A stretch of DNA of 64,000 nucleotides, taken from positions 14,852 to 78,851 of the forward strand of contig CAYWCV010000005.1 of assembly GCA_964456845.1 (NCBI GenBank), read 5' to 3'. Source of the stretch: an uncultured Chitinophagales bacterium (GTDB lineage Bacteria; Bacteroidota; Rhodothermia; Balneolales; CAYWCV01). Of the stretch, positions 7,138 through 27,211 are shown piece by piece. The notes beneath the pieces were generated by a model. The model was not told the origin of the DNA. It made no database searches and saw nothing but the letters and a program-made list of their open reading frames with translations. The position numbers and the translations under genes are program-made. Position 1 is the stretch's first letter. The number at the start of each line of letters is the position of its first letter.

Positions 7138-7166
7138 CTTTAAGAAGGTTTGAGAGCCGGCAGGAT

Positions 7167-8228
7167 TTATGGCTGGGCGGTCTCGGTGGCTTGGTTTAGA
7201 ACCGTGGTGGATGATCGCAGTATGAGTTCGGGTGAGAAAATGGTGTGCGACACCATGCGCTCCGGATTTTCAATACGGTCCATAAGTTTGTCGAGCGCCA
7301 TTGCGCCCATTTCGTACATGGGTTGCCGCATCGTGCTCAATCCCAGGAATCGGGAAATTTGAATGTCGTCGAATCCGATGATAGGTATGCTTCTTTCTGA
7401 ATCCCGCATGGCCTTCAAAGCTCCCAATGCCTGTATGTCGGATGCACAAAAGCACGCATCGGGCTTGATCGGATGGTTTAGGATTTTCATCATGGCGGCG
7501 TAACCGGCCTGTTCGGTGAAACCATCGCGGTAGGTGTCGTCGCCACATACGATGAGGTCGGGGTCGACCAAACGCCCCGAATCTTCAAGAGCCCGCTTAT
7601 AACCGTGAATACGGTCGCGTATCGGTTTAGAAGACTCCACAGCCGATATCATAGCCACACTTTGGCATCCTGAGTCAATCAGATATTTTGTGGCCGTGTA
7701 GGCGCCTTCCACGCTGTCGACGCTCACAGAGTCGAATTTGGGCGAGAATTCGTCGACTAGCACTATAGGTACCTTGAATCGAAGCAAGGACTCCCAGTCC
7801 ATCTCGGGTAGATGCACAGAGACAAGTGCATAGCCGTCGGCCAGTCCCTTTTTCATCACGTACTCGACCTGATTTCGGAGCTCTTCGGCAGTCTCGAAAC
7901 CTTTAATATTGTAGATGTTCAGGTCGTACTCGAATTCAAGAAGCTTGTCTTGCATTCCTGCCAAGATCTCCATGAAATAATAATTGGAGAGGATTGGCAC
8001 GATAAGAATGATGGTCTTGGTGTTTCTGCGCGCCAGACCTTGCGCAAATGCCCGCGGATGGTAGCCCATCGACTCGGCGACATCTAGGATCTTTTGCCTC
8101 GTTTTGGGACTTACGTTCGTGTTGTTGTTGAACACGCGTGAGACGGTGGCGATGCTTACCCCGGCTGACTTGGCGATATCGTATATGTTGATGGACAACG
8201 CAGTATCGAATTCGACGCGTGCCCGCAC
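7167..8228 (-). CDS. LacI-family transcriptional regulator
   Basis: HTH IYDIAKSAGVSIATVSRVFNN followed by a periplasmic-binding-fold sugar sensor. The track start at 8228 is GTG and lies inside a GC hairpin. A TTG at 8198 (MSINIYDIAK...) is the more likely start. Confidence 0.9.
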   Translation of the reverse strand: MRARVEFDTALSINIYDIAKSAGVSIATVSRVFNNNTNVSPKTRQKILDVAESMGYHPRAFAQGLARRNTKTIILIVPILSNYYFMEILAGMQDKLLEFEYDLNIYNIKGFETAEELRNQVEYVMKKGLADGYALVSVHLPEMDWESLLRFKVPIVLVDEFSPKFDSVSVDSVEGAYTATKYLIDSGCQSVAMISAVESSKPIRDRIHGYKRALEDSGRLVDPDLIVCGDDTYRDGFTEQAGYAAMMKILNHPIKPDACFCASDIQALGALKAMRDSERSIPIIGFDDIQISRFLGLSTMRQPMYEMGAMALDKLMDRIENPERMVSHTIFSPELILRSSTTVLNQATETAQP

Positions 8229-8247
8229 CCCAAAGTTGGGGTGCGGG
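8222..8247 (-). terminator. GC-rich stem-loop between the CBM20-like gene and lacI (10-bp stem CCCGCACCCC/GGGGTGCGGG, 6-nt loop); no U-tract
   Basis: Perfect inverted repeat read directly from the sequence, 16 nt after the stop at 8264. The absence of a T-run makes a classical intrinsic terminator uncertain. Confidence 0.35.
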
Positions 8248-8263
8248 TCGCATCGTGAAGGTA

Positions 8264-10435
8264 TTATTTGATAAGTACCATCTTACGGTCGGCCGTGAAG
8301 TTGTTGGCTTCGAGGCGGTAGATGTAAACACCAGATGCCAGGCGTGAAGCATCGAAGTTCACGGCATGTGTACCTGATGTAAAGCGCTGGTTGTTCAGAA
8401 CCGTGGCCACTCGTTGTCCAAGCGTGTTGTAGATCGCAAGGCGCACTTCGCTGGTAACAGGAAGCGTGAAGTTGATCGTCGTGCTTGGGTTGAATGGGTT
8501 CGGGTAGTTCTGCGACAGAGCATAGCCTGCTGGCAGATCAGAGAAATCGCCCTCGTCGCTAGACAAGATGGCGCCATAATTTGGAAGCGGCTCGAATGGC
8601 AGGTCTTCACGGGTCCATGTCAGTAATGGGAACTGATAGGTCGAAGGCCAGCGAAGTTCACCGTCCACAACGATCGGCTTGATGAATTGGTAGTAGCGAC
8701 GGCCAGAGTCGAAACCACCGCCATTCAACAACGTGCTCTTAGCGCCACGTGGATGTCCGTAAGCGATACGGAATCCGATGTCGTTCAGCGTAGGCATGAC
8801 CAGAGGCATCACAAGCTCATAAATGCCGTCGCCGTCGGGATCGCGCATCATGATACGCTCAAGCTCCGCCGTGGTCGGCGTGTAGTTACGTGTCGGATTG
8901 TTTAGATCCTCGATACCGTTTACCGACTGCTCACCTGGACGAATGCCTTGGGTAAGAGCAAAGAAGTTGGTCTCAAACACGACGAAAACGGAGTCAGAGC
9001 TTGGTACAAACGGTGTTTCAAAGGTTTTGGCAGGATTCATGTCGATACGGAAGGTCACCGTAGAGGCGTTGCCAACGGTGTTTTCTTCGTTGATGAACGC
9101 CTGGCTCGAAATTCCGTTGAAGAAGGAAATACCCTCTAGCGGATTGAAGGTATCCTGGATCTCAGCATCAACGACGGTGTACACGCGGTCACCTCCACCA
9201 AATTCACCTGGCTCCTCGTAGCCTGTATCACCGGTCAAACCTGGGATATACGAATTTGGGCGGTAGTTTACGTCAAGCGGGTTGTTCACAAAGCGTGAGC
9301 GTGCCCACTGAATGTAGTACTTGAACTTACGCGTTGAGCCGACAGCGACGTTGTCGCTTGGAATTACTTTAGTCCATGCCTGCAGTGATGACTCGAACGT
9401 CATACCGCCGACTGCCGGACCTCTCTTTGGTCTTGGGTCGGAGCTGTCGGGGCTGTCTTCTGCCCATCCCGTGAAGTCGGACGCAACGAATACAGAGTCG
9501 CCCTTTGCGGCATCGAAGTAACCGAGGTCTTCAAGAGCACCCACTTGGATGGCGAAGCTGAACGATGTATTGATGCGTTTTGCGTTAGTAGGGCGCAGGC
9601 CGTTGAAGAAAGACCATTCGACAGACTTAGTTGTGATATCGCCAGAAAGATTCAGTTGCTTGTTGTTGCCATCTTCCCATGTCACGCCTTCTGAACCGCG
9701 ATCAATTGCGTATTTCCACTCAACAACGCCATTTCCTGGCAAGTTTGCTTTCGCAAACTTAGCTACACCACTGTAGAACGTTACTCCGACATTGTTGTTC
9801 GGGTTGGCTTCTCTGGCCAGTGTAACCGTCGCACTTCCCCAGTCGAGGGGAGCAGTACCACCGCGTACCTGAACCAAGTGGTTGCTGTTGGTGTCGTCAA
9901 GCAAACCATCCTGGATCATACGTCCCACGTTTACACGGAATTGGACTTGTACCGTGTCGGGGTGTGTTGCTCCAAAGACGGCGATCTCATCATAAAACAC
10001 TGTCGGCAGCACGACAGGGGCCGTTGCATTAGCCGGAAGTGTGTAAAGACGGTTTGGTGCGCTTTCCCAGCCTGTGTTGGGGACTGTTTCCGTGTTCACA
10101 ATCTGGTCGTCGGCATTACGGTAGCCGACCCAGTATTTGTGCTCAAAGGTGTCGCCTGGGGTCATCATGACTTCCATTTCCCAGGTGTTATCACCGACAT
10201 ACTCCATAATGAGTGTGGAACCTGCGTTCCAGTCGATGACCTGACCATTATATTGGGGGGCCTTCCCTTGAATGGCACCGCGCATCTGCACAACATCCGT
10301 TGTGCGTACGGTATCCTTCACCGTCGAGGTGTTGACTCGGAAGGTCACTTTCACAGGATCCTGTGCATATGACCAACCGGCCAGCCCCAAGACCATCATC
10401 AGCGAAGCTATTGCTAGCCTAGTAACCGTTTTCAT
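8264..10435 (-). CDS. secreted multi-domain putative starch-binding protein (CBM20-like modules) with T9SS CTD
   Basis: Signal peptide present. It has repeated beta-sandwich modules beginning VKVTFRVNT / VQVQFRVNVG / TVTFRIDMN. One fits the CBM20 pattern (VQVRGGTAPLDWG...VEWKYAI...VTWEDGNNKQL). CTD is YPNPFNPSTTINFTLP...GVYIYRL...KMVLIK. Confidence 0.6.
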   Translation of the reverse strand: MKTVTRLAIASLMMVLGLAGWSYAQDPVKVTFRVNTSTVKDTVRTTDVVQMRGAIQGKAPQYNGQVIDWNAGSTLIMEYVGDNTWEMEVMMTPGDTFEHKYWVGYRNADDQIVNTETVPNTGWESAPNRLYTLPANATAPVVLPTVFYDEIAVFGATHPDTVQVQFRVNVGRMIQDGLLDDTNSNHLVQVRGGTAPLDWGSATVTLAREANPNNNVGVTFYSGVAKFAKANLPGNGVVEWKYAIDRGSEGVTWEDGNNKQLNLSGDITTKSVEWSFFNGLRPTNAKRINTSFSFAIQVGALEDLGYFDAAKGDSVFVASDFTGWAEDSPDSSDPRPKRGPAVGGMTFESSLQAWTKVIPSDNVAVGSTRKFKYYIQWARSRFVNNPLDVNYRPNSYIPGLTGDTGYEEPGEFGGGDRVYTVVDAEIQDTFNPLEGISFFNGISSQAFINEENTVGNASTVTFRIDMNPAKTFETPFVPSSDSVFVVFETNFFALTQGIRPGEQSVNGIEDLNNPTRNYTPTTAELERIMMRDPDGDGIYELVMPLVMPTLNDIGFRIAYGHPRGAKSTLLNGGGFDSGRRYYQFIKPIVVDGELRWPSTYQFPLLTWTREDLPFEPLPNYGAILSSDEGDFSDLPAGYALSQNYPNPFNPSTTINFTLPVTSEVRLAIYNTLGQRVATVLNNQRFTSGTHAVNFDASRLASGVYIYRLEANNFTADRKMVLIK

Positions 10436-10486
10436 GGTTTTCTCCTTGGTTGTTGGTTGGTACGGGTTTTTCCGTAAGCTTTTCGG

Positions 10487-11557
10487 TTAGAATGAAATTG
10501 AAAAAGAGACTCGGTTAACCAACCCGAGGTTGGTGTACGAGTTGAGTGCGTATCCGAAATCGAAGCCAAGACCGTTGTTGAGGCTGTGCTTGATTCCGGC
10601 ACCGGCCGTGAATTTGAGCGTGCGCTCATCTTCGGTGCGTCCTGTGATGTACGGCACGCCTGCACGCAGGGCAAAGCGGTCGCCGAGGAAGGTCACCTCG
10701 GTGCCGAGGCTTACGCTCTGATAATTATCGTTGGGCGAGGTTCCGTCGACCATGATCGTCGCACTAATCTGCTCCGTCTTGATCGGCTGCCAGGCTAGAC
10801 CTACACGCAGCATGAGTGGCAAGTCGAATTCGTCGGTTTCAAGCCGCGTGTTCACTTGGCCGTTGTTGCCGTTGTTGGTAGGGTCGATGTCGACCGTCGT
10901 GGTCAGGTCCTTACCGTTAATCTGCATCTTCTGACCAAAGTTGGTGATGCTCACTCCTAAGATGATGCCATCGAAGGGCGTTTCGTAGGTTGTGCCGATA
11001 TCGAAGGCGATTGCGGAGGCGCTCGAATTCCAGATGGTTTCGTTCACATATTTGACGTTGGCACCTAAGGCAAACTTATCGATGAGATACCTGGCGTAGG
11101 TCACACCTACCGCATAGCTGTACGCACGAAATTTCAGGCCCAATGAACCCTCTGGATCTTCAAAGGTGGTCACGGTCATGTCGTCCATGGTCAATGCGGT
11201 GATGTTCACACCTACAGCGCTTCGGTTACCCATGGGCATCACGAAACCAAGGTAGTTATGCTTAAGGTCGAGGAACCAATCGGCGTGCTCAACCATGAGC
11301 GAGTTGTTCTCGATATTCGCAATGGCGCTTGGGTTCCAGACCATGGCGGAAGCATCGTTGACGGAAGCACCAACGGCACCCCCCAAGGCTGCCGAGCGCG
11401 AGCCCACCGGAATTTTTAAGAACTGTGCGGCCGTTGTACCCGTTTTTGAAACGGTTTGACCAAACGATGAGACGGGGGAAAAGCAAATCGCCATCATCAG
11501 GAAGGTCAATCGGAGAGTCAGATGTGTTTTCATAGTGTGTTTTCTCCCTGATATCAT
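10487..11557 (-). CDS. PorV/PorQ-family outer-membrane beta-barrel (T9SS-associated)
   Basis: After the signal peptide comes GTTAAQFLKIPVGSRSAALGGA...DASAMVWNPSAIA, the N-terminal hallmark of PorV/PorQ-family barrels. The C-terminal residue is F. The ATG at 11557 overlaps the upstream stop (ATGA). An alternative ATG lies at 11533. Confidence 0.7.
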   Translation of the reverse strand: MISGRKHTMKTHLTLRLTFLMMAICFSPVSSFGQTVSKTGTTAAQFLKIPVGSRSAALGGAVGASVNDASAMVWNPSAIANIENNSLMVEHADWFLDLKHNYLGFVMPMGNRSAVGVNITALTMDDMTVTTFEDPEGSLGLKFRAYSYAVGVTYARYLIDKFALGANVKYVNETIWNSSASAIAFDIGTTYETPFDGIILGVSITNFGQKMQINGKDLTTTVDIDPTNNGNNGQVNTRLETDEFDLPLMLRVGLAWQPIKTEQISATIMVDGTSPNDNYQSVSLGTEVTFLGDRFALRAGVPYITGRTEDERTLKFTAGAGIKHSLNNGLGFDFGYALNSYTNLGLVNRVSFSISF

Positions 11558-14500
11558 TTGATGACTGCGAATTTGTCTTTCTTGACCCCTATGCCTGGGG
11601 CATCAACTACGTACAGATAGACCCCATAGGAGAGCTCCAGGTTATCCTTGGTGAGCATATTCCAAATGTAGGTCCCGTCGTCGTTTCGGTTGTTCACTTC
11701 CAGCTTATTCACCAGGTGACCAGACACCGTATAGATGTAGATCGTGCACTTTGCGGGCAAGTGGTTGAAGTGCATCTGCCGCGTCTGTTGTGGCTGAGAT
11801 GTGGTTGGTCGAGGCTCAACAATGTTGGTCACGACATATGGATTGGGTACGACCTTAATCTTATCGAGGGCATTCTTTGCGGAGTCGGCTTCAACCCTGG
11901 CCATATTCAGTTCGGGATCGATCTTGAATTCGAAGATGTCGTTTGCCGTGAACGGTTTGATGGTCTTCAGTTCTAGTCTGTCGCCATTGGTTGGGTTCAC
12001 ACTCTGCACGACGTTGCTAGGCACTAAGTACACACGCCAGGTGAACTGGTTGCGCAATGCCCCTACATTCTCGATGAAGATGATGTCGTCTCGTACGGTG
12101 AATGACGAAGCTGAGAAGTTGCCGTCCTGACCGTCGGTTGCCAAGAACGCAAATTGCACCTCCCGGTCTTCGGTGCGGTTGAACACCTTAAAGTTGGTTG
12201 GACGCGATATTGCCCGCACCGGTATGGCGCCGATGCGAATGGTGGTGTCTTTCGAGGTGCCAAAACCCGGCGGACCCATCACGATTTCATAATCGCTCGG
12301 TTTGGTCTGGTTGCGGAACACCTCAAACCGGACATCGTGAATGGAGACATTTCGATCGGTACGCCATCCCGACAATGTTGGGTTGTACGCGGTCACTTCA
12401 CCGGCATTGGTGACGATAACCCTGAAGCCCTGCTGCACCGGATTGCTCTCTCCGTTAAAGCCTGGCGAATTCTTGATCAGGGTGTCGATGCGACCGGCTG
12501 AAATGTTCAATAATGAGAAATCCTTGGTCTTGACCGTATCAGGTACGTTTGGGTTGCCCGACCGGATCAAGGTATCGCGGAAAACGACACGGTAGGTGTT
12601 ATCAGCTCGCAGGGAATCGGGGTCAATGATCGATACTTCGACGGTTCCCCCGGCAGAACCCTGCACTAAACGCGCCATCGGGTTGTCAGGGTTGATATAG
12701 CCTGCCGAGCTGGCACGTGGGCGCACGACAACAACATTCTCGCCGGTTACGACCGATCCGTCCGGATTCAGGTTGATCTGAATCGGCGACTCAGAAGGAG
12801 AAATCCCGGCAGGGGTTGCCCCAAAATCGTAGGCGGTAACGGCATAGTAGTACACACGACCATTGATTACATCGGTGTCAGTGAACTGACGTTGCAGACC
12901 GGTGTCGTTTCCTAGGAAGAACTTGATGCCGTTTACATCGACAGGATGGAAACCCGAGAATCCGTTCACCTTGTCGAACTGAGCAATTGGGCGGTTGAAT
13001 ATCAAGTTGCCGAAGCCGTCGGTAATCGTACGGGAGTCGGCGAAGGCAGGATCGGTCGACTTATAGATCTTGTAACCTTCGAAATCGTTTCCAGGAAGTC
13101 CAAGCTTGTCGACATAGCGGTCAAATGAAAGCTCTGAGTCAGTGTCCCAATACAGTGTGACGTAACCGTCGCCGGCTACAGCCTTCACTTTTGGAGGCTT
13201 AGGCGCCACGGCAAACTGATAGTCAGCTTCGTATGCGTTTGTAGCCTGGTTCAAGTTCTCGTTGTTTTTCACCCGGTCCTGCTCGAGCGAACCATTGGTC
13301 TGGGCGACCGATATTGCCACAGCGAAGCGTTCGATGGATCCTCGCCGCAACGGAAAGAAGGACGAGGTGATCAAAATGTCAGAGTCTTGGCTCGTGGCGC
13401 CGGCTTCGAAGACACCCGGACGCATGTTGTTGTTCCAGAAACTCTCGTCGGCAGCGAAGTTGGCTCCAGATCCCAACGTGCCGGCACCGGGGAACGTGAC
13501 GGATGAGATACCGATCTGGTCTGATTCTGAGACGTCTGTCTTGTCAATATTAGGCTCGCCAGGAAACGGCGTGAACGCACCCGATGTCGGCCTTCCGTCG
13601 CCCTCGCCGGTGTCTCCCGTAGCCTCGACCCCATCAAGTCCGACATCGTCGCTAACCTCAACCCAATCGCGGTCGTTGTCGAAGAAGTCGTCGCGAGCTT
13701 CGTCGATCATCGGCGCACTGGTGAAGTAGTTGCGGTCTTCGGCCGGGAACGATGGACTCGATGCGCGTCGCTGCGTGATCAAGCGGTTGGGTACGATCAG
13801 GCCACGTTGAATGGTATCGCCTACCTCAAATCGGAGGTAATTAATGTAGCGAACAGGTCTTGGAAGGAAATTGCCGTTCACAAGTGTCTGCTTGGTGAGG
13901 TGGTTTGGACGGTTCTCATCAATAAGTCCATCCAAGTCGTTATCTAACAAATCTGTATTGTAGAACTCGTTCGTCGAGCCCGGAATGGCGATGGCATCTT
14001 CAATGAGCGTGATACCGTTGGGGGGCAAAACAATCTGCCTGCCCTGGGATACGACCGTACCACCACCTTGTGGGTAAGTGGATATCACCCGATCACCGTT
14101 TTCCTGGATCAGGACGATCTTGTCGCCAGGACGCAGTGTGCGAGAAGCGAAGTCTTCGGCGGTAAAGAATGGAATCACTTCCGAAACCAGTTGGTTGCGG
14201 TTGTAAAAACCGTTCGGACCCGTGAGCAAATTGAACAAATCCTCGTTTTGTGGATTCGTGCCATCGTACTGGTCACTGTCGCCGTCGTTGTCGATGCCGT
14301 CGATGGAATTGCCCGGGGTTTCGAGGAACTTCATGGCAAGCATACCAATTGGCTGGCCGTTAAATTCGGGCGGCGACTGTGTGCGCTGAAGATCTGTCAA
14401 ATAGGCGACGGCACGTCTCTGGTCAAATTCGGGACGGTCGTTCGAAGGAGTGCCCACCCAGTCGGCAACCCAAAGGGTGAAGGCCATCTTGTCGTAGTTG

Positions 14501-15252
14501 TAGGATCCGTCGTTGAACACCTCCATGATGTTGAAGTGAACGTCGCTGATCAGGATCTGCGACCATGCCAAGACACGGGTGTCGAGCTTGATGGCGAGTC
14601 CGCCTCGGGTAGGATCCGTTTGATCCGGTGCAAAGCGGCCATTCTCGATGAATCGGGTGTAGTTGTCATCGCTGGCACGATAGAAGAACTCCTGGTCGGC
14701 GTTGAAGATGTCTTTGCCAAAGAAGCCGTTCCATGCGTTTGGCCAACCGGGATCGACGGTGTCAGTAATTTTGTCAGGCCAGAACGACGGCCAGGTGTTA
14801 CCCAAGGTGGAACCGGGTCCACGATCGCTTCGGGCCAATTCAGGGCTTCCTGCATTGAAATAGCCTGAAACAGGGTTCATGTTCCAGCTCCTGCCCTGAC
14901 TCGTGCGCCCGTTGGGCGTGTTGACGATGCGCAGCACGCCAGTGGCTCCTGGAGCTTGGTCGTTTACTTCGGCGCCCACGAAAATCGCGAACAGGTACAT
15001 GTACTGGCGTCCCGTGTTCTTCGGATATTCAAAGATGATTTCGTCTTGACCGGAAATGCGTCCAGCCCACCCGAAATTGTGATACGTGGCGCGCACGTTG
15101 TTGCCATCGAGGATCGACTTGCGCCTGTCCTGAAAGGATGAGCGCTCGTCGCTCGGAATATGCTCGCCGTTGCTCTGTGCAACCACGGGTGCAACCAGGG
15201 CCAGGTATAGTGCTCCAGTCAACAAATATTTGAGTGCAAACATAGATTTCAT
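11554..15252 (-). CDS. 1232-aa secreted protein of unknown function with Asp-rich Ca-binding-type repeats and a divergent T9SS/FlgD-Ig-like C-terminal domain
   Basis: Signal peptide MKSMFALKYLLTGALYLALVAPVVAQ. Motifs IDGIDNDGDSDQYDG, LLDNDLDGLIDEN and FFDNDRDW..DDVGLDG resemble thrombospondin type 3 repeats. The C-terminus is VVPNPY...TIYIYTVSGHLV...YGVYLYVV...KFAVIK. Confidence 0.8.
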   Translation of the reverse strand: MKSMFALKYLLTGALYLALVAPVVAQSNGEHIPSDERSSFQDRRKSILDGNNVRATYHNFGWAGRISGQDEIIFEYPKNTGRQYMYLFAIFVGAEVNDQAPGATGVLRIVNTPNGRTSQGRSWNMNPVSGYFNAGSPELARSDRGPGSTLGNTWPSFWPDKITDTVDPGWPNAWNGFFGKDIFNADQEFFYRASDDNYTRFIENGRFAPDQTDPTRGGLAIKLDTRVLAWSQILISDVHFNIMEVFNDGSYNYDKMAFTLWVADWVGTPSNDRPEFDQRRAVAYLTDLQRTQSPPEFNGQPIGMLAMKFLETPGNSIDGIDNDGDSDQYDGTNPQNEDLFNLLTGPNGFYNRNQLVSEVIPFFTAEDFASRTLRPGDKIVLIQENGDRVISTYPQGGGTVVSQGRQIVLPPNGITLIEDAIAIPGSTNEFYNTDLLDNDLDGLIDENRPNHLTKQTLVNGNFLPRPVRYINYLRFEVGDTIQRGLIVPNRLITQRRASSPSFPAEDRNYFTSAPMIDEARDDFFDNDRDWVEVSDDVGLDGVEATGDTGEGDGRPTSGAFTPFPGEPNIDKTDVSESDQIGISSVTFPGAGTLGSGANFAADESFWNNNMRPGVFEAGATSQDSDILITSSFFPLRRGSIERFAVAISVAQTNGSLEQDRVKNNENLNQATNAYEADYQFAVAPKPPKVKAVAGDGYVTLYWDTDSELSFDRYVDKLGLPGNDFEGYKIYKSTDPAFADSRTITDGFGNLIFNRPIAQFDKVNGFSGFHPVDVNGIKFFLGNDTGLQRQFTDTDVINGRVYYYAVTAYDFGATPAGISPSESPIQINLNPDGSVVTGENVVVVRPRASSAGYINPDNPMARLVQGSAGGTVEVSIIDPDSLRADNTYRVVFRDTLIRSGNPNVPDTVKTKDFSLLNISAGRIDTLIKNSPGFNGESNPVQQGFRVIVTNAGEVTAYNPTLSGWRTDRNVSIHDVRFEVFRNQTKPSDYEIVMGPPGFGTSKDTTIRIGAIPVRAISRPTNFKVFNRTEDREVQFAFLATDGQDGNFSASSFTVRDDIIFIENVGALRNQFTWRVYLVPSNVVQSVNPTNGDRLELKTIKPFTANDIFEFKIDPELNMARVEADSAKNALDKIKVVPNPYVVTNIVEPRPTTSQPQQTRQMHFNHLPAKCTIYIYTVSGHLVNKLEVNNRNDDGTYIWNMLTKDNLELSYGVYLYVVDAPGIGVKKDKFAVIK

Positions 15253-15267
15253 TGGTCCTGGTATGGC

Positions 15268-18114
15268 TTAGTAAAAGGATAATTGCAATCCGAACTGGAC
15301 CCTGCGGGGCTCGGAGTAAAACGTCGGGTTCGTGTAGAAGCCCGGGTCAAAATTTGTGGGGAACAGCAATGGCGACTCCGGCCTGCCCGAATCTCCGTAG
15401 ACATTGATCGGATTCTGAGAATCGAACACATTGAACACATTCAAAAATATCCTCGCCGTCTGCCCTTTGATATTGAAATCTTTGTATGCATTCACGTCGA
15501 CACTGATGTTAGACGGACGCACCAGGCTGTTCGTCAGCACATCGGTGGAGGCATTGATACCCACCCGGCTTGGTATGGACGTGTCGGGTGTGTATGGGTT
15601 TCCGGTCTGGAACTTCTGCAGGATGTTCATGCCCCACGACTTGCCGGCATAAAAGATGGACGAGTTGAAGATGTGCTTGCGGTCCCAATCGAGTGGCCTC
15701 AGAAGCTTTGTGAGTGCCGAACCTGTGGTGTCGTTTCTGGAGAGGGCCGCGAAAAACTCGGCGGCAGGATCGGAGTTCGACCCCTCGGCAATCGAAAACG
15801 TGTAGTCGAACCTGACGCTGATGGCATTGGCCACGTTCTGGTTGAGGGATGCCGTGATGCCGCGCACATTGGCATAGTCGCGGTTGATCCAAGTACCATA
15901 TCGCACGCTGGGGATGTAAGTCTCGGTGGTCGGACCCGAAGATATCCAGTCGCGGATGTCACGATAGAAGCCCGTAACATCGATGGCGGTTCCGGCAATG
16001 ATTTCCTGCTGCAGACCCAGCTCGTACTGGATCGTCTTCTGTGGCTTCAGATCCGGATTTCCGTAGATGCCGTAAATACCGGAATTTTCCTCAAGAATGA
16101 TCTGATCGCGCGTAAATAGTCGGTCATATTCAGGAATCTGGAAGAAGTAGCCGTAGGAGAAACGAATTACACCACGGTCCGAAATCGGATATGCCACACC
16201 GAGGCGTGGGCTTAGGGCAAACTTCGGATCCACCCTGCGGAACCAGTAGGACTCGCGCTGTTGCAGGGTGTTGTTGCGGTTTTCGGTCAGGAAGGGGTTG
16301 AAGATGTCTGGATCTTTCGGATCGGCCGGCACATTGGCATTGGCGTTGAAATAGTCGAAGCGAACACCCAAATTGATGATCAGGTTCTCGTATTCCATCT
16401 TGTCCTGAATGAATGCCGCTGCAGCATAGGGCTTACGTTGATACCGCTGGTGATCGGAGGTGTTGATCGGTGGGATACCCATCGACACTCCGGGAGGTGC
16501 CGTCACCCCGTTTTGCTCGTTCACGGGCTGCAGCGAGAATGAATCGTAGTCGAGAACATCCGACTGAAATTCAATGCCCGTCTTTATGTAATGGCGCTGA
16601 TTTACCTGGCTGGAGAGTTCGACCTTTGCGATGAAGGTCTTGGTGTTTCTTTCGAAGAATCCGTTGCTGGTTCCCAATCGGTTGAACCTGCCGGATTGGC
16701 CAGGAGTGAAGATGGGGTCGAGCGATCCTAGCCGTTGGTAGTTGAAGTATCTGAGGTCGTATGGATCCTTGTACAGGTAGCTCCTGAAGTTGTTTTCCTT
16801 CTGAGCGATATTTGCCGTAAGGAAGGTGTTGTTCGACGGCGTCACGGTAGTCTTCAGGTTCAGCGAATAGTTTTGGCGCAGACTTTGGGCACGGCCATCG
16901 GGAACGGTGCGGTTCTGGTGGTCGTATCCCCTGCCACGCTCGTCGCCAAATAAACCGATCAGGTTGAAGCGCAGCTTTTTATTCACGTTGAACTGCAAGT
17001 TGCCTTGGGCCGATACGGTTTCGAAGGTGTTCATGGCGACCAAAGCAGAGTCGCGCACCCCTGTGTCGCGATAAACGATGTTCCCGTTTGCCAGTGTGTC
17101 GAGTGGCAGATACCACGATCTGCTGAAATCGACACGGTCACCAAATCGGTTGACACCACCCGTCGTAAGCGTGTCGGTAAATGGCCCGAGCGGTGAGTAC
17201 GCATTGTATCCATTCAGCCATCCGTCGTTCTTAAAGTGTCGGCCCGTTATGAAAAACGTCAGTTTATCTTTGATGATGGGACCGGACACACTCGCGTCGA
17301 TGTTGTACTGCCGCTGCGGATTGAGCCCTGTGATAGCCGTGTTCGTCCCATTGAAAATATGGCCGTTCGAAGTGAGGTAGTCGCCGGCCCAGATGCGGAA
17401 GTTGCCGTCAAATTTGTTTGATCCTGCTTTGGTCACCACATTGATGATACCGGACATCGCCTGTCCATATTCGGCATTGAATGTTCCAGATATCACCTGG
17501 AGCTCCTGCACGGAGTTGTTCTCGATACGCACGCCCTGGCTGTTGTCGAAGTTGTCGGTCACGCGAACGCCGTCGACGATGTACGAAACCTCGGTGGAGC
17601 GGCCGCCACGGATGTGGATGGATCCCGTCGAGCTGACGGAAACACCCGCCTGCAACTGCACGACGTCGCGCAGCTCCTGTACCGGAAGCTTCGCGATCTC
17701 CTCGCGGCTCACACGGGCTTCGGTACTGGTCAAATCCTTGATGATGACATCCCTGTTGGCCTGTACGACAACCTCTTCGCCAACAAATGACTCCGTGCGC
17801 AGACGGAAATTGGCCTCTGTGGTCAGGTCGGTACGCACAATCACCCCTTCGGTGGTTTGCGTGACGTACCCCAGGAATCTGGCGACCAGCTTATACGTGC
17901 CAGGTGGGACATTCAGAATGAGGAAGCGTCCTTCGATGTCGGTTGGCGCACCGATGGTCGTGCCCTCGATGAATACGTTTGCCCCAGGAAGCGGCTCGCC
18001 GTCGGTCGCATCGAGAACCCGTCCGGTAATTTTCCCAGACTGGGCAAAAATGTCGGCTGGCATTGCTACGAATGCAATGAGGCAAAGGATGAGTAATAGA
18101 AACCGTGAGTTCAT
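15268..18114 (-). CDS. TonB-dependent outer-membrane receptor with N-terminal carboxypeptidase-regulatory-like domain
   Basis: Signal peptide present. GKITGRVLDATDGEPLPGANVFIEGTTIGAPTDIEGRFLILNVPPGTYKLVARFLGY is a CarboxypepD_reg domain. A plug (IHIRGGRSTEVSYIVDGV) and a long barrel ending QLSFY follow. Confidence 0.9.
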   Translation of the reverse strand: MNSRFLLLILCLIAFVAMPADIFAQSGKITGRVLDATDGEPLPGANVFIEGTTIGAPTDIEGRFLILNVPPGTYKLVARFLGYVTQTTEGVIVRTDLTTEANFRLRTESFVGEEVVVQANRDVIIKDLTSTEARVSREEIAKLPVQELRDVVQLQAGVSVSSTGSIHIRGGRSTEVSYIVDGVRVTDNFDNSQGVRIENNSVQELQVISGTFNAEYGQAMSGIINVVTKAGSNKFDGNFRIWAGDYLTSNGHIFNGTNTAITGLNPQRQYNIDASVSGPIIKDKLTFFITGRHFKNDGWLNGYNAYSPLGPFTDTLTTGGVNRFGDRVDFSRSWYLPLDTLANGNIVYRDTGVRDSALVAMNTFETVSAQGNLQFNVNKKLRFNLIGLFGDERGRGYDHQNRTVPDGRAQSLRQNYSLNLKTTVTPSNNTFLTANIAQKENNFRSYLYKDPYDLRYFNYQRLGSLDPIFTPGQSGRFNRLGTSNGFFERNTKTFIAKVELSSQVNQRHYIKTGIEFQSDVLDYDSFSLQPVNEQNGVTAPPGVSMGIPPINTSDHQRYQRKPYAAAAFIQDKMEYENLIINLGVRFDYFNANANVPADPKDPDIFNPFLTENRNNTLQQRESYWFRRVDPKFALSPRLGVAYPISDRGVIRFSYGYFFQIPEYDRLFTRDQIILEENSGIYGIYGNPDLKPQKTIQYELGLQQEIIAGTAIDVTGFYRDIRDWISSGPTTETYIPSVRYGTWINRDYANVRGITASLNQNVANAISVRFDYTFSIAEGSNSDPAAEFFAALSRNDTTGSALTKLLRPLDWDRKHIFNSSIFYAGKSWGMNILQKFQTGNPYTPDTSIPSRVGINASTDVLTNSLVRPSNISVDVNAYKDFNIKGQTARIFLNVFNVFDSQNPINVYGDSGRPESPLLFPTNFDPGFYTNPTFYSEPRRVQFGLQLSFY

Positions 18115-18122
18115 TTTTCGTA

Positions 18123-19760
18123 TCAGATAGTGATTGTAACCGTTTTCATTTTCTCGTAGTCTGCCGTGGCGCCGTGAGTCTTTTTGGTCTCGTCGATAAT
18201 GGCGTTTCGCAGTTTTTTCACCTCGTCGGCCTTGCGGATCTCAATGAGGTTTAGTTTGGCCTGATCAAAGCTGACCGGACCTGGTTCTTTTCTGTCGATG
18301 CACAGGTAGACGATCCACCGGTCTGGTGTGTACTCGAGTGGACCAGCGATACCTCCCCGTCGGAGGTCTCGGAGATTGGGCGCAAACTTGCCAAATGAGT
18401 CTATTGGCCGGAAGCCGAGCTCGCCGTCGTATAACAGCGCCTCGCCCATCACCCCGTATTTTAGCAGAACAGTTTTAAAGTCGGAACCGGCTTTCAGTAG
18501 AGTAATGGCCTCCTCGGCATCTGCTTTGCTGGCCGTCACCAATTCGCCAAGGTTCAGCTCAATGGTGCCGGTGCGGTATTCCGCGCTAGAGTTGTACATG
18601 GCGCGGAGTTCAACCTCGGGGATCACAACTTCCTGGTACAGATGCTCGTTGAAACGGTCGATAAGCCAGGAGTGGAAGGTCGCCTCGACGGTTTGTCCAG
18701 CAAAGGATGCGTCAAATTCAGGATGGTTACGAACCTGATCGATTGCATAAGACCTGTAGGCGATGCCGTCGATGATCTCACGCAGTGATTTCCTGGAGGC
18801 AAATCGCCAGTCTGGCAGGAGTGCAGCTTCGATGCGGAAGTCTTCAAGGGTTATCGTAAATCCGCGAAGCTCGGCCACAACGGTACTTTCTGGCAAATTG
18901 ACATTAAACCGGTTCCCTTCGGTTGTTACCCGCATGACCTGGTAAAGTTCCTCGAGGACCTTGTCGTCAACTCGAATTTCGCTTGTCAGATTTTCGAGGT
19001 CACGGCGGGTCGCCATTTCACGGTTCCGCTGCAGTGCATAATCGGATAGAGCTGCCCTCCGATTGGCAAATTCGGTCTCCGTCACGATCGGTTTTGTGAC
19101 AATATCGGTCACCTTGATGATACTGTAGCCCTGGTTCGTGCGCACTGGAGGCGATATCTGCCCTGGATCCATTCGGAAAGCGATGTTCTCGAAAGCGGGG
19201 TCCATTTCGTCGATCGTGAAATAACCGAGGTCGCCACCGTTTTCACGAAGGTGCTTGTTGGTAAAAATCTCGGCCGCCAGATCCTCGAAGCTTCCTCCGT
19301 TTTGAAGGATCGCGTACAGCGAGTCGGCGGTGTACCGGTCGGGGGCATACAAGTGGGACGCACGTACGCGGGCGTTGAACCTACGGAACAGCTCTCGGAG
19401 ATCATCCTCGTCGACACTAACGTTCGCGTGCACGAGCAACCTCTCGTATTCCTGCATGTGCACCTGCCGTTCGATGAGGGCGCGCTGCCTGCTTCCTGCC
19501 TCGTCGCTGTCCCACCCCCTGTCCTCGGCCCAGGTTACGACCGTGTAACGTTCCAGTTCGCCATCGAGCACCGCCTTGAGCGTGACGTCGTTTACAGGCA
19601 CAGCTTGGCCCGTCTGGTAATAGTAGTTTCGGAATGCGTTTTGAAAATGGAGATCTGTGACCTCATACTTGCCAATGCTGGCCAGTACCTGCCTGTCATC
19701 GTGCCGGTTGCAAGCCGCCAAGCCGCCCATCACAGCAGCCAACAGCGCATACCGAAACAC
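18123..19760 (-). CDS. SurA/PpiD-like parvulin peptidyl-prolyl isomerase, predicted lipoprotein
   Basis: Parvulin domain VRASHLY....GGDLGYFTIDEMDPAFENIAF.MDPGQISPPVRTNQGYSIIKV. The track ORF reaches a TTG at 19814. A GTG at 19760 gives a canonical lipoprotein signal, MFRYALLAAVMGGLAAC. Confidence 0.8.
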   Translation of the reverse strand: MFRYALLAAVMGGLAACNRHDDRQVLASIGKYEVTDLHFQNAFRNYYYQTGQAVPVNDVTLKAVLDGELERYTVVTWAEDRGWDSDEAGSRQRALIERQVHMQEYERLLVHANVSVDEDDLRELFRRFNARVRASHLYAPDRYTADSLYAILQNGGSFEDLAAEIFTNKHLRENGGDLGYFTIDEMDPAFENIAFRMDPGQISPPVRTNQGYSIIKVTDIVTKPIVTETEFANRRAALSDYALQRNREMATRRDLENLTSEIRVDDKVLEELYQVMRVTTEGNRFNVNLPESTVVAELRGFTITLEDFRIEAALLPDWRFASRKSLREIIDGIAYRSYAIDQVRNHPEFDASFAGQTVEATFHSWLIDRFNEHLYQEVVIPEVELRAMYNSSAEYRTGTIELNLGELVTASKADAEEAITLLKAGSDFKTVLLKYGVMGEALLYDGELGFRPIDSFGKFAPNLRDLRRGGIAGPLEYTPDRWIVYLCIDRKEPGPVSFDQAKLNLIEIRKADEVKKLRNAIIDETKKTHGATADYEKMKTVTITI

Positions 19761-19832
19761 CGTGTCGAGCGATACGATTCCTCCTTTGGTGCTATGGCAT
19801 CTTACAGTGGACAATACCTTTTCCTTGTTTTA

Positions 19833-19846
19833 TGTAATCGCTTACA
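19833..19846. promoter_or_regulatory. LacI/cre-type palindromic operator TGTAATCGCTTACA
   Basis: It matches every constrained position of the LacI-family/cre consensus TGWAANCGNTNWCA. It lies 73 bp upstream of the probable PPIase start, at the head of the alpha-glucan operon that encodes the LacI regulator. Confidence 0.55.
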
Positions 19847-19858
19847 TTTGAATAATAA

Positions 19859-19872
19859 TGAAAGCGCTTACA
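19859..19872. promoter_or_regulatory. second LacI/cre-type operator TGAAAGCGCTTACA
   Basis: It also matches TGWAANCGNTNWCA at all constrained positions. It sits 26 bp centre-to-centre from the first site. Confidence 0.55.
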
Positions 19873-20047
19873 TCTTACAAGCAAAAAGTTGCCATTTTTT
19901 TATTCTTTCATAACTTTTAGAAAAAAAGCACCCCATCTCCCTCGATTGGCCGTAATTCGTCAGCCACCAATATTCCAGATGGCCTCGACATGCCCGTATA
20001 TCACCTGAAAAAATGGCATGTAAGCACTATCATTCCTTGTGTTCGGA

Positions 20048-20692
20048 TCAGGGCGACAGACGGTCGATAACCCAGCTCCCATCGACGAGCCGGAACCGAA
20101 TACGGTCGTGCATGCGGCTTCCCCTGCCCTGCCAAAATTCGATCATGTTCGGTACTAGCCTGTACCCGCCCCAATAGTCCGGCATAGGGATGTCGTCTCC
20201 CACATATTTCGCCACGTTCTCTTCATAACGCCTCTCCAGGAAGTCTCTTGAAGCAACCACCTCGCTTTGGTTCGAGCTCCATGCACCAATACGACTTCCG
20301 GCTGGACGAGAATCGAAATACGCCCTCGATTGGTCCTTGCTGATTTTTTCGATGTCGCCCTCGATCCTGACCTGACGTTCGAGCTCCCCCCAGAAAAACA
20401 GCAGGGAGGTCTTAGGATTTTGGTCCATGTCCTTTCCTTTTCGGCTCTCGTAGTTCGTGAAGAATATGAACCCCCTGTCGTCAACACCCTTGAGCAACAC
20501 GATGCGGATGCTGGGCTGGCCGTCGGGCGACACGGTGGCATGCGACATCGCGTTTGGCTCGACGATTCCGGCGTTGGTGGCCTGCTCAAACCAAACGGAG
20601 AACTGACGGAATGGGTCTGCGTCGACATCCGTTTCAAGAAGACCGTTTTTCGTATATTCGCGCCGAAGATCGGCTAAATTAAGTTCGCTCAT
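20048..20692 (-). CDS. pdxH: pyridoxamine 5'-phosphate oxidase
   Basis: [88 protein letters not shown]. Confidence 0.9.
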
Positions 20693-20698
20693 GGTCGT

Positions 20699-21355
20699 TC
20701 ATTCAAATGGTTTTGTTGGGGTGGCCCGAAAACAGACATACCGAATGATACGTCCTTCCGACAGGTGCTTTCCTTCATAAAAGGTCTGTATGAAAAGGTC
20801 TGAGCCGTCTGGCGCGCCGGCATATATGTCGGCGTTGTGCTCAATAAGCTCCAATCCGTACAGTTCGATCATCTTTAGGGTGTAATCATGCAACACGGGG
20901 TCGTCCGTTTTGAGGTGGACCAAACCGGTGTCGGGAAGCAGTTCGGAATAAATCTTCAGGAATCTCGGAGATGTGAGCCTTTTGCCAGGTTTGCGCAAAT
21001 AGGGGTCAGGAAACGTGATCCAAATTTCGCTGATCTCGCCAGGCTCAAAATAATGGAGCAGATCTTCGATCTGAGTCCTCAAGAAAGCTGCGTTGCTTAG
21101 CTTCTCCTGCAAGCCTTGCAAGGCACCGATGTAAATGCGCTCACCCTTGATGTCGACGCCGATGAGGTTCTTATGAGGATACCTCCTTGCAAGCTCGAGC
21201 GTGTAATGACCCTTGCCGCATGCAAGCTCCAGTACGATCGGGTTGGAATTATGGAAGAAATCAGCCGCCCATCTCCCCTTCAGGCGGGGATCCAGCTCGA
21301 TAACGTTATCGAGTTTGCCTACTTCGGCATAACGAAATAGCTTCTGCTTTGCCAT
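20699..21355 (-). CDS. trmB: tRNA (guanine-N7)-methyltransferase
   Basis: SAM-binding LELACGKGHYTLELARRYPHKNLIGVDIKG, plus FPDPYLRKPGKRL. The start is taken at the ATG at 21355; the track begins one codon earlier at a GTG. Confidence 0.85.
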   Translation of the reverse strand: MAKQKLFRYAEVGKLDNVIELDPRLKGRWAADFFHNSNPIVLELACGKGHYTLELARRYPHKNLIGVDIKGERIYIGALQGLQEKLSNAAFLRTQIEDLLHYFEPGEISEIWITFPDPYLRKPGKRLTSPRFLKIYSELLPDTGLVHLKTDDPVLHDYTLKMIELYGLELIEHNADIYAGAPDGSDLFIQTFYEGKHLSEGRIIRYVCFRATPTKPFE

Positions 21356-21373
21356 CACCCCAATATACGGATG

Positions 21374-22147
21374 TCAGAAGTCTTTTCTGACAAATCTCCT
21401 CCCACCCAGCATCACGGGAACAGCAGCCCAAATCATAAGCATGGATACGCTCACCCATACTCCAATCGACGAACCAAAAAACTGACGGTACAACGCGCCG
21501 GTGAAGCCCATCATGGCCGATTCGTCGGCCGACAACACCAAGATGATGCGCCCCAAATCGACGGGATTCGCAAGCGTCAGCGCCAGAACCGGACGTTCCA
21601 GCGGGTATTCGGCAAACATGGCGATCACGAACATGATCAATGCGTCGTATAGAATGGTGAGGATCAGCCATGTCACAATTGCCAAGCCCATCCCGCGGAT
21701 TTTGTCGTCCTGTTTGAGTGCGATCACGAAGGCTATCGCTACAAAGATGGCCATCAGGATGAGTCCTGTGCCCACTACCGTGAGGAACGGGCCAAATGCA
21801 GCCCGAAGCATGATGGGCACGCCGACACCCAAGGTGTACGCTGCCATCAGAGGGACTACCAAACCGGCATACAGACTGACGTACAAATCTCGGCGCCTGA
21901 TTGGCTGCGACAACATCAGCTCGATGTACTCCCGGTTGTTGTACACATAGATGGTTCCAAAGATGAGGCCGCATAGCGGGATGATCGAGAGCGACAGGTT
22001 CATCAAGCTGAGCATGGTGCCGTCGCCGGTGCCCCCAAAACGGATGAGCAGTTCCGACACTACAGCGAAAAAGATGCCGAATCCAATGACGGCCTTGCTG
22101 CGGAGACCATCCAGAATTTGATATTTGAGCAAGGTGTTACTACTCAT
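21374..22147 (-). CDS. nosY: ABC-2 type permease of the nos maturation transporter
   Basis: Six-TM ABC-2 permease. It is translationally coupled (ATGA) to nosF within the nos cluster. Confidence 0.8.
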   Translation of the reverse strand: MSSNTLLKYQILDGLRSKAVIGFGIFFAVVSELLIRFGGTGDGTMLSLMNLSLSIIPLCGLIFGTIYVYNNREYIELMLSQPIRRRDLYVSLYAGLVVPLMAAYTLGVGVPIMLRAAFGPFLTVVGTGLILMAIFVAIAFVIALKQDDKIRGMGLAIVTWLILTILYDALIMFVIAMFAEYPLERPVLALTLANPVDLGRIILVLSADESAMMGFTGALYRQFFGSSIGVWVSVSMLMIWAAVPVMLGGRRFVRKDF

Positions 22148-24092: not shown

Positions 24093-24113
24093 ACCTGCGT
24101 CCTTATCTGCCAG

Positions 24114-24563
24114 TTATCTGTTGTCGAACGTATTGATCAGCTCCACCCACGTGAGAATGCCGCCTTCATGTCCCCCGAGCCTGGCCATAGCAGCTTCCCG
24201 GTTTTGATAGGCGCTCAGGTTGCCCCCCATAGGGCTTGGGATGGACGGACTTACCACATACACTGCTTGGGTTGCATCGAACATGTCGTTTGGCTCAATT
24301 TGGTCCGCCACTCTGAAAAGCCTGATTTCGTCGGTTGATCCAACATTGGATGCCGTGTACTTCATCATGCATTCGATGGCATCAAAACTGTGTGTGCGAC
24401 CCTTGTCGGTCACAAGCTGTGCTGCGAATGCCTTTTCGGTGATCGTCATGCGACAATGAGCGCACTCCTGCACTCCGAACAAAATGGGATCAGGCTCGGT
24501 CGTGCATCCAGCGAAAAACATGCTGGCCATAAGCAGAAATGAAATAGAGGTTAAACGTCTCAT
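24114..24563 (-). CDS. nosL: copper chaperone lipoprotein
   Basis: Lipobox FFAGC. The motif CAHCRMTI....AAQLV...G....FDAIECM is the NosL signature. The start is taken at the ATG at 24563 (MRRLTSISFLL), which overlaps the upstream stop (ATGA). Confidence 0.85.
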   Translation of the reverse strand: MRRLTSISFLLMASMFFAGCTTEPDPILFGVQECAHCRMTITEKAFAAQLVTDKGRTHSFDAIECMMKYTASNVGSTDEIRLFRVADQIEPNDMFDATQAVYVVSPSIPSPMGGNLSAYQNREAAMARLGGHEGGILTWVELINTFDNR

Positions 24564-27201: not shown

Positions 27202-27211
27202 GGCATTGACA

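Follow-up and report, generated by a model that had tools for sequence, protein, structure and literature searches.

Gene content of the operon

The window, a stretch of 64,000 nucleotides from an uncultured Balneolales bacterium, contains an eight-gene operon in which a TonB-dependent receptor is followed by the genes for a 1232-residue secreted protein (hereafter the giant) and for an outer-membrane barrel of the PorV/PorQ family. The best-supported reading of this operon is that of a polysaccharide utilisation locus (PUL)-like system, the outer-membrane core of which comprises the receptor, a giant delivered through type IX secretion (by the T9SS) and a dedicated PorV-like barrel. Gene positions and spacing were taken from an open reading frame (ORF) analysis of the window, and domain assignments from Pfam and NCBIfam profile scans of the eight proteins. 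The genes all lie on the minus strand, from 19762 to 2402, in the order peptidyl-prolyl isomerase (PPIase), receptor, giant, PorV-like barrel, carbohydrate-binding module (CBM) family 20 protein, LacI regulator, and two enzymes of glycoside hydrolase (GH) family 13 of 969 and 605 residues. They are separated by successive gaps of 8, 15, -4 (an ATGA overlap), 51, 35-65, 29 and 8 bp, and so are as tightly packed (-4 to 65 bp) as an initial annotation, made from the sequence alone, had described.

The receptor (948 residues; 15268-18114, minus strand) has an N-terminal CarboxypepD_reg domain, a plug and a 22-strand-type barrel, behind a signal peptide ending in IFA/Q, where the slash marks the predicted cleavage site. 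Directly 3' of it lies the giant (11554-15252, minus strand), which the initial annotation had correctly taken to be secreted: it has a Sec signal peptide (VVA/Q) followed by a head of approximately 500 residues, an Asp-rich loop region, fn3/Ig-like beta-sandwich domains and a divergent T9SS C-terminal domain. The ATG of the 356-residue barrel gene (10487-11557, minus strand; NF033709) overlaps the stop codon of the giant gene within an ATGA. The next gene encodes a secreted protein of 723 residues (8264-10435, minus strand) with a CBM20 domain (CBM_20, E=5.2e-9) and a canonical T9SS type A sorting domain (Por_Secre_tail, E=8.9e-11; TIGR04183, 45.8 bits), which is a candidate surface starch-binding protein. 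It is followed by the LacI-family regulator (7167-8228, minus strand; LacI helix-turn-helix and Peripla_BP domains), with a probable start at TTG 8198, and by the 969-residue GH13 enzyme (4228-7137, minus strand; Alpha-amylase, E=2.9e-24), which also carries a T9SS type A sorting domain (Por_Secre_tail, E=7e-10) and is predicted to be a secreted or surface amylase/pullulanase-like enzyme. The last gene encodes the 605-residue GH13 lipoprotein (2402-4219, minus strand; Alpha-amylase, E=1.3e-47), with a lipobox LSAC and a match of 218 bits to Cyc-maltodext_AglB that is under the cutoff of that model, consistent with a cyclomaltodextrinase/neopullulanase-like activity.

The first gene of the operon encodes a parvulin-type PPIase lipoprotein (18123-19762, minus strand) that is PrsA/SurA-like, as the initial annotation had recognised in calling it a SurA-like lipoprotein chaperone. 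It matches Rotamase, Rotamase_2 and Rotamase_3, and its NCBIfam scores for PrsA (77.8 bits) and SurA (39.7 bits) are each under cutoff. The longest ORF begins at TTG 19814, and the most plausible start is the GTG at 19760-19762, downstream of which lie the signal peptide VFRYALLAAVMGGLAAC and a lipobox LAAC. Two aspartates are found no more than six residues past the lipid-anchor cysteine (C-N-R-H-D-D; gene 18123-19762). In Bacteroides, a two-Asp pattern is taken as a mark of surface-exposed lipoproteins, including the PPIases BamJ and BamK that are associated with the machinery for beta-barrel assembly (BAM) (PMC12578637).

Two co-localised GH13 enzymes, a CBM20 protein and a LacI regulator, with LacI-type operators upstream, are the CAZymes (carbohydrate-active enzymes) and the regulator for a single glycan that are expected of a PUL. 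This gene content supports an alpha-glucan as the probable substrate of the operon, in agreement with the initial annotation. No SusD-family Pfam match was obtained at E<=0.01 in the eight operon proteins, and because the intergenic gaps are so short there is no space for an additional gene that might encode SusD; the absence of SusD claimed from inspection of the ORFs therefore holds with profiles as well. In all five locus proteins of Sec/SPI type a glutamine directly follows the predicted cleavage site: receptor IFA/Q, giant VVA/Q, barrel FG/Q, CBM20 protein YA/Q and GH13 enzyme RA/Q (18030-18114, 15178-15252, the 10440-10435 region and the N-termini of genes 8264-10435 and 4228-7137). This pattern, here seen in a member of the Balneolales, is that of the 'Bacteroidetes Q-rule' (PMC5837995).

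Receptor and barrel families

The receptor scored 78.7 bits against the SusC/RagA model TIGR04056, which has a cutoff of 368.25, with only the N-terminal 200 residues aligned. Five receptors from other locus types behaved similarly, four scoring 50-82 bits and the fifth having no match at E<=1e-10. As judged by these scores, the receptor is not of SusC/RagA type.

The barrel scored 191.8 bits against the PorV/PorQ family model NF033709 (cutoff 90), with alignment over profile positions 1-326 of 326, so that the PorV/PorQ-family barrel overlapping the giant gene, which had been noted at first sight, is well founded. Against the equivalog models it scored only 98.7 bits for PorQ (NF033711, cutoff 220), 77.2 bits for PorV (NF033710, cutoff 250) and 73.8 bits for PorV2 (NF052325, cutoff 325). 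Five barrels from other locus types gave 194-243 bits with NF033709 and likewise failed the PorV, PorQ and PorV2 models. By profile score, then, all six barrels tested are members of a distinct PorV/PorQ subfamily that is neither PorV nor PorQ.

The giant protein and its fold

The giant belongs to a large protein family without a Pfam or NCBIfam model. The 1232-residue sequence had zero matches in Pfam (2025), NCBIfam (June 2026) and a PDB sequence search. A word-indexed search returned more than 1000 homologues at E<=1e-3, the named ones being annotated as hypothetical or as T9SS sorting-domain proteins, and an exhaustive phmmer search with residues 33-1232 returned 2669 representative clusters at E<=1e-3, of which 432 reached E<=1e-30. 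Full-length relatives of approximately 50% identity are present throughout the Balneolales. The giant contains a single cysteine and no lipobox.

An AlphaFold2 model built with 88 homologues was compact and nearly all beta, with a predicted local distance difference test (pLDDT) score of 85.2 and a predicted TM-score (pTM) of 0.80. Foldseek comparison of the full-length model with the PDB yielded only low-TM matches to fn3/Ig arrays (TMq <= 0.08), the weak matches including anosmin-1, Aureispira GhpA, complement C3, an S-layer protein and PorZ. The head (residues 33-532; 13657-15156, minus strand) was also modelled alone (pLDDT 83.2, pTM 0.77), and Foldseek found no fold match for it in the PDB (best E=0.13, probability 0.02); it contains dozens of invariant Trp, Asp, Asn and Glu residues. 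The all-beta model, the absence of a SusD match and the absence of a lipobox rule out a SusD-like fold, and Foldseek revealed no structural similarity to a GH, polysaccharide lyase (PL) or carbohydrate esterase (CE) fold. As such, with an all-beta model and no informative fold match, the giant appears to be neither SusD-like nor a recognisable enzyme, which speaks against the two outcomes, a SusD-like tetratricopeptide repeat (TPR) lipoprotein or an unrelated enzyme, that the initial annotation had set against its own proposal.

A further suggestion of that annotation, that the giant contains thrombospondin-type-3-like Asp repeats, has to be withdrawn. There is no Pfam TSP_3 match, which rules out a thrombospondin type 3 repeat array, and the Asp motifs amount to just three or four isolated DxDxD-type motifs (residues 321, 437 and 525), because of which the name 'Ca-repeat protein' is an overstatement.

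Variability among the giants is concentrated in residues 301-480 and 831-1110. Conservation over all locus types is seen in residues 33-300, in residues 481-830 and in the C-terminal domain; the grouping of sequences into starch and other types from which both statements derive is imperfect. The two variable regions are candidates for type-specific contacts. An arrangement of a variable N-terminal specificity domain on a conserved C-terminal stalk was also considered and is not supported by this distribution.

The C-terminal domain of the giant

The C-terminal 120 residues of the giant (11557-11916, minus strand) form a divergent T9SS type A-like sorting domain (VVPNPY...GRGxR...CTIRIFT...YGVYIYHV...GKFAIIK). 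In an hhalign comparison, a profile of 43 giant C-termini matched one of 17 canonical type A sorting domains taken from these loci with a probability of 94.6% and E=6.9e-8, which bears out the divergent T9SS-type C-terminus that had been recognised by eye. No Pfam sorting-domain match (PF18962) was found on the full-length window giant. In all ten family members compared, the C-terminus weakly matched the C-terminal domains of PorU and PorZ and TIGR04183, the PorU/PorZ matches being equal to or better than the generic TIGR04183 match. Among T9SS proteins, the only PDB profile matches were to PorU (6za2, E=0.005) and PorZ (5m11, E=0.53); matches to designed WRAP-T repeat proteins were rejected as spurious sums of sub-threshold repeats. 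Some homologues of the giant carry the NCBI name T9SS type A (P0114, P0117). Homology to T9SS type A sorting domains, of an atypical kind, is thus indicated by profile comparison.

This domain, which was modelled by AlphaFold2 as seven beta strands, is among the best-conserved parts of the family, column identity averaging 58% over 43 sequences that represent many phyla. PorU and PorZ are the two T9SS cargo proteins with retained C-terminal domains, bound by PorV and PorQ (PMC10202324). The sequence evidence is suggestive of a giant C-terminal domain that is likewise retained and barrel-binding.

Conservation of the receptor-giant-barrel triad

Relatives of the locus were searched for in one genome per GTDB species. 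At least 591 were found and 80 loci were kept, in which neighbours were assigned by tblastn with the window proteins; the denominators 61 and 63 below are loci with enough flanking sequence. The 80 loci come from Balneolales, Rhodothermales, Ignavibacteria/Melioribacter, Calditrichota, KSB1, Marinimicrobia, Kryptonia, Stahlbacteria and unclassified bins, and a few carry the metagenome-assembled-genome labels Cytophagia or Chitinophagales, which are labels only and unconfirmed. In 59 of the 61 testable loci the gene immediately upstream of the giant encodes the receptor, and 66 of the 80 loci match the window receptor at this position with more than 200 summed tblastn bits, full-length receptors giving approximately 460-1070. 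As for the barrel, 58 of 63 loci have it as the next gene downstream of the giant; of the remaining five, three show the order receptor-barrel-giant. The triad is thus conserved over many lineages of the Fibrobacterota-Chlorobiota-Bacteroidota (FCB) group, with several triads per genome.

The PPIase is immediately upstream of the receptor in 30 of 80 loci, and the whole eight-gene arrangement was found in orthologous loci on two Balneolales contigs. A giant of 39% identity is encoded in the order PPIase-receptor-giant-barrel amid GH13 genes, an ABC sugar transporter and a TrmB regulator. In three loci (L057, L066 and L072; positions ~4600-13800 in each) the order is receptor, PorV-like barrel, giant, PPIase. 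This variant is common to Ignavibacteriales, Melioribacteraceae and Marinimicrobia; its giants are 59-67% identical, a CBM9 T9SS protein flanks all three loci, and L057 also has a GH26 T9SS enzyme. Two distinct giant-barrel sets are present in each of L062, L020 and L007. In L011 (8447-17070) two giant-barrel pairs with identical barrel scores follow one receptor, which may be an assembly duplication and was not used as evidence.

Linkage to glycan genes and substrate types

Starch-type loci, defined by GH13 or a CBM20-like protein, make up 37 of the 80. At the non-starch triads the neighbouring T9SS proteins include CBM9, CBM4_9 and X25/CBM20 proteins and, in L056, a GH43-CBM6 enzyme; the neighbouring enzymes include GH26, GH16-malectin, GH66, GH94 and a PF10091 glycoamylase-CBM30; and SSF and SBP transporters are also found. 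More distant relatives likewise form part of triads, that of L007 lying beside an MFS transporter and a GH130/GH43-like gene. LacI genes are repeatedly encountered at the start of triad loci, and in nearly every locus at least one type A sorting-domain protein with a CBM or GH domain flanks the triad. A census of 98 further proteins from 25 loci gave Por_Secre_tail (14 of 98), rotamase (6) and SSF (5) as the top families, with GH130 (3) and GH94, GH13, GH2 and GH16 (two each) also represented; the SusD family was absent from the 25 commonest families in this census. The triad is thus linked to many CAZyme families, and the survey of FCB genomes that the initial annotation had proposed returned a conserved, glycan-linked module. 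The module thereby withstands the test of glycan linkage by which that annotation could have been refuted.

Pairwise identities group the giants by locus type and not by taxon. The giant of the Marinimicrobia locus L072 is 59% identical to that of the Ignavibacteriales locus L057, both being of CBM9 type, compared with 37% to the starch copy in its own genome (L036). Similarly, the Calditrichota giant of L059 is 62% identical to that of L084, both of GH94 type, and 41% identical to that of L074, which is in the same genome and of GH66 type. Such grouping by type, together with the linkage to CAZymes, is what would be expected of paralogous, substrate-dedicated uptake loci.

Regulatory features

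Two exact matches to a palindromic, LacI-family operator-like pattern, O1 (TGTAAGCGCTTTCA, 19859-19872) and O2 (TGTAAGCGATTACA, 19833-19846), neither of them assigned to a strand, together span 71-110 nt upstream of the PPIase start, with O2 lying 71 nt upstream of the GTG (19762). A third operator-like site with one mismatch (TGTAACCGTTTTCA, 18135-18148, no strand assigned) lies 21-34 nt upstream of the receptor start, and a fourth with two mismatches (10421-10434, no strand assigned), weak when taken alone, directly adjoins the CBM20 gene at its start. In total, 11 matches to the operator pattern are present in the window against 1.66 expected, a number reached in none of 100 shuffles. The O1 14-mer is also found upstream of the PPIase gene in the Balneolales loci L001, L003, L010, L011 and L012, and the variant TGTAAGCGCTTACA occupies the same position in Balneolales L026. 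The variant TGTAAACGTTTACA precedes lacI in three non-starch loci, and across the related loci the motif has 12 matches in 1.39 Mb against approximately 0.3 expected. In Natronogracilivirga (L003/L004, 22652-22705) the palindrome TGTAAGCGCTTACA is also found before a second CarboxypepD_reg-type receptor just past the starch locus, which hints at a larger regulon.

A sigma-70-like promoter candidate (19852-19880, minus strand; -35 TTGTAA, 17 nt spacer, -10 TATTAT) overlaps O1 and is a consensus match only; the count of sigma-70-like promoter matches in the region was not above that in shuffles. Five nucleotides past the last gene, the terminator scan identified a terminator-like hairpin of 11 pairs with a T-rich tail (TTTATTATGG, 2372-2397, minus strand). 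The operators, the promoter candidate and this final hairpin would fit a single LacI-repressed transcription unit. The hairpin reported earlier between the CBM20 gene and lacI (8222-8247, minus strand) is also present, with a perfect 10-bp stem (CCCGCACCCC/GGGGTGCGGG) and a 6-nt loop. It has no T-tract and is absent from the terminator scan calls, so that its function as an intrinsic terminator is unsupported.

Surroundings of the operon in the window

Directly upstream of the operon (20048-27676) is a nitrous-oxide reductase cluster, with a NosZ-like gene at 25240-27201 and NosD at 22851-24092. The genes that come before this starch locus in other Balneolales are ABC, amine oxidase, two rhomboid genes and GcpE, and upstream synteny is therefore broken in the window. 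A 784-residue amylo-alpha-1,6-glucosidase of glycogen-debranching type (GDE_C, 32219-34573) lies 12 kb from the starch operon. Further proteins with T9SS type A sorting domains are encoded at 28398-32207 (a 1269-residue S8 subtilase) and 37231-40113 (960 residues, no other domain), from which it appears that the organism employs the T9SS widely. The gene for a 1383-residue protein (41808-45959), in which there are fn3 traces and a C-terminus of FlgD_ig type, shares 4 bp with that for a 746-residue protein with an HHH_3 motif (45956-48196). A second, different TonB-dependent receptor, of OMP_b-brl_3 type (802 residues), is followed by a 1157-residue PD40/amidohydrolase protein (50947-56938) and has neither a giant nor a PorV-like partner.

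Discussion

The reading that we favour is that of a LacI-controlled alpha-glucan utilisation operon with a proposed receptor-giant-barrel uptake mechanism, and taken whole we judge it somewhat more probable than its negation. According to this mechanism the T9SS-sorted amylase and the CBM20 protein would bind and cut starch at the cell surface. The giant would be exported over the outer membrane by the T9SS and, by analogy with PorZ-PorQ and PorU-PorV, its C-terminal domain would remain uncleaved and bound to the cognate barrel, so fixing the giant beside the receptor. Such anchoring is proposed because the two genes overlap and are almost universally adjacent, because the C-terminal domain is unusually conserved, and because PorZ-PorQ and PorU-PorV provide a precedent. 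The giant's head and its variable beta-sandwich regions may capture malto-oligosaccharides or pass them to the receptor, as SusD does in Bacteroides; this SusD-like substrate-loading role we infer from where the giant is encoded, next to the receptor, and from the way in which it has diversified by locus type. The receptor, from its family, would draw on TonB for the energy to import the oligosaccharides, the GH13 lipoprotein would complete their degradation, and the parvulin PPIase lipoprotein may aid the folding or assembly of the complex. Of the alternative glycan-capture machine that the initial annotation had envisaged, the module and its link to glycans are real, the SusD-like job of the giant is an inference, and the proposal that the giant also does the work of SusE and SusF is less apt, as the CBM20 protein is the likelier analogue.

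Several observations weigh against this reading. The Pfam and NCBIfam scans detected no inner-membrane sugar transporter among the eight operon proteins. The operon thus has the receptor, CAZymes and regulator of a carbohydrate utilisation (CUT) locus based on a TonB-dependent receptor and lacks the transporter, and it differs in this from related loci, which carry SSF, MFS or ABC transporters. A few loci are without an obvious CAZyme, for example L008, which has a GDSL lipase and an FG-GAP protein. The isolated C-terminus of the window giant scores 14 bits against TIGR04183, under the curated cutoff of 23. Neither a carbohydrate-binding module nor a known fold was detected in the giant by Pfam or by Foldseek with the full-length and head models, and a separate CBM-bearing T9SS protein in each locus could supply all of the glycan binding, the CBM20 T9SS protein rather than the giant being the likelier SusE/F analogue in the window. 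The core of the giant is moreover common to substrate classes, and as such a generic structural role fits equally well as binding.

That last consideration leads to the main rival, which we regard as unlikely though not negligibly so: that the giant is a scaffold or attachment platform on the barrel, tethering or organising the T9SS cargo of the locus by the receptor in a utilisome-like assembly, with the CBM protein responsible for binding. The type A sorting-domain CBM and GH proteins that flank the triad in almost every locus, Por_Secre_tail as the commonest flanking family in the census (14 of 98), the conserved core of the giant and the resemblance of its beta-sandwich arrays to surface stalk or adhesin proteins are all consistent with such a platform. 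A generic scaffold would, however, have no need of deep giant subfamilies that track locus type across phyla, and no known docking domain was detected in the giant. It is improbable, in our estimation, that the barrel is instead a dedicated secretion shuttle and not an anchor, the giant being cleaved and released or attached to lipopolysaccharide and acting independently of the receptor. There are precedents in PorV, which shuttles type A cargo, and in the PorP/SprF barrels that are required for secretion of neighbouring cargo (PMC10202324), and the window barrel passes only the broad PorV/PorQ family model. However, this leaves unexplained the near-universal adjacency of a receptor to the giant-barrel pair (59 of 61 loci), and so high a conservation of the giant C-terminal domain would not normally be expected of a signal that is removed and lost.

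Catalysis by the giant, as a new carbohydrate-active enzyme or other catalyst, is less probable still. The head, which has no known fold and in which Asp, Glu, Trp and Asn are invariant at dozens of positions, could be read in this way, but one giant family serves loci of alpha-glucan, beta-mannan, beta-glucan, dextran and arabinoxylan type, which argues against linkage-specific catalysis; the loci already contain dedicated GHs, and the giant is structurally unlike any GH, PL or CE fold. We give least credence to the giant-barrel pair being a module that serves generally as a surface coat or adhesin, takes no part in glycan uptake and is found with this receptor subfamily only by shared locus ancestry. 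Such a module would accommodate the loci without recognisable CAZymes. It would not account for the way in which, in many phyla, the triad is time and again linked by type to CAZymes, CBM proteins, LacI regulators and sugar transporters, nor for the LacI operators that precede the operon.

A broader form of the favoured receptor-giant-barrel reading would hold that one stable machine of this kind is the main glycan importer of those FCB lineages that do not belong to class Bacteroidia (Marinimicrobia, Ignavibacteria, Calditrichota, KSB1, Balneolales and Rhodothermales), in which a T9SS-delivered giant with a retained C-terminal domain replaces SusD as the substrate-loading lid. This would be a second, independently evolved means of TonB-dependent polysaccharide uptake, with an unseen fold. 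We put it forward tentatively, as a proposal that falls somewhat short of an even chance of being right.

Comparison with known systems

The starch utilisation system (Sus) of Bacteroides thetaiotaomicron consists of SusC/SusD with SusE, SusF and SusG, and the comparison extends to SusCD-based PULs or 'utilisomes'. The operon resembles Sus in that a TonB-dependent importer is combined in one co-regulated locus with an amylase and starch-binding proteins of the surface, with a GH13 enzyme that is periplasmic or a lipoprotein, and with a regulator, and triad loci resemble it in the presence of several paralogous substrate-specific loci per genome. In contrast to Sus, the receptor of the triad locus fails the SusC/RagA model (78.7 against 368 bits) and a SusD-family protein is absent, its partner being an all-beta 1232-residue Sec/T9SS protein rather than an alpha-helical SusD lipoprotein. 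The surface proteins of the operon bear T9SS sorting domains instead of lipid anchors, and the operon adds a PorV-like barrel and a PPIase. The Xanthomonas CUT loci and the Caulobacter maltodextrin receptor MalA are TonB-dependent glycan systems without SusD, and share with the operon a receptor lacking a SusD partner, CAZymes and a LacI-type regulator. Unlike the triad loci, they are not known to have an obligatory surface partner, a PorV-like barrel or a T9SS, and the window operon for its part has no inner-membrane transporter such as is typical of CUT loci.

Closer precedents for the giant-barrel pair are found in the T9SS itself. In PorZ-PorQ and PorU-PorV the C-terminal domain of a T9SS cargo protein is kept and bound by a 14-strand barrel of the PorV family, so that the cargo is held at the surface (PMC10202324). 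The giant C-terminus scores against the PorU and PorZ domains and its barrel belongs to the PorV/PorQ family. The giant-barrel pair differs in that the window barrel fails the PorV and PorQ equivalog models, that the giant shares only its C-terminal domain with PorU and PorZ, and that giant-barrel pairs are multi-copy and located in nutrient loci beside a TonB receptor, not in secretion machinery. For SprB-SprF and other type B cargo, adjacent PorP/SprF barrels are needed for secretion or anchoring (PMC10202324). The giant is similarly a very large T9SS surface protein encoded beside its own PorV-like barrel, but its C-terminus is type A-like, the barrel is of the PorV/PorQ and not the PorP/SprF family, and the context is glycan uptake as opposed to gliding motility. 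Putative lipoprotein 'lids' are encoded alongside Bacteroides non-SusC TonB-dependent transporters (10.1101/2023.03.17.533168). These likewise pair a non-SusC receptor with its own adjacent non-SusD surface partner; the lids are lipoproteins of other families, in contrast to the giant, and no T9SS cargo with its own barrel is among them. A FadL/PorV-like barrel is used as an attachment platform in the BAM complex of Bacteroidota (PMC12578637).

Full-text literature searches, the coverage of which did not extend to subscription-only papers, found no description of the triad. The kind of system, a TonB-dependent glycan utilisation locus, is known; the giant-barrel partner pair is new.

Significance

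Polysaccharide uptake in the Bacteroidota has been explained almost wholly by the SusC/SusD paradigm, and the SusC/SusD pair is what PUL prediction tools search for. The lineages with the module described here, among them Marinimicrobia, Ignavibacteria, Calditrichota and Balneolales, include abundant degraders in oceans, sediments and hot springs, the glycan capture of which is poorly understood. The triad looks like a widespread alternative to the Bacteroides Sus system. A three-gene marker, consisting of the receptor subfamily, the giant and the PorV-like barrel, would permit glycan loci to be predicted from genomes, and the existence of cultured hosts (Melioribacter, Gracilimonas, Balneola and Natronogracilivirga) makes the triad directly testable. 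If the anchoring model is true, PorV-family barrels would gain a role outside secretion.

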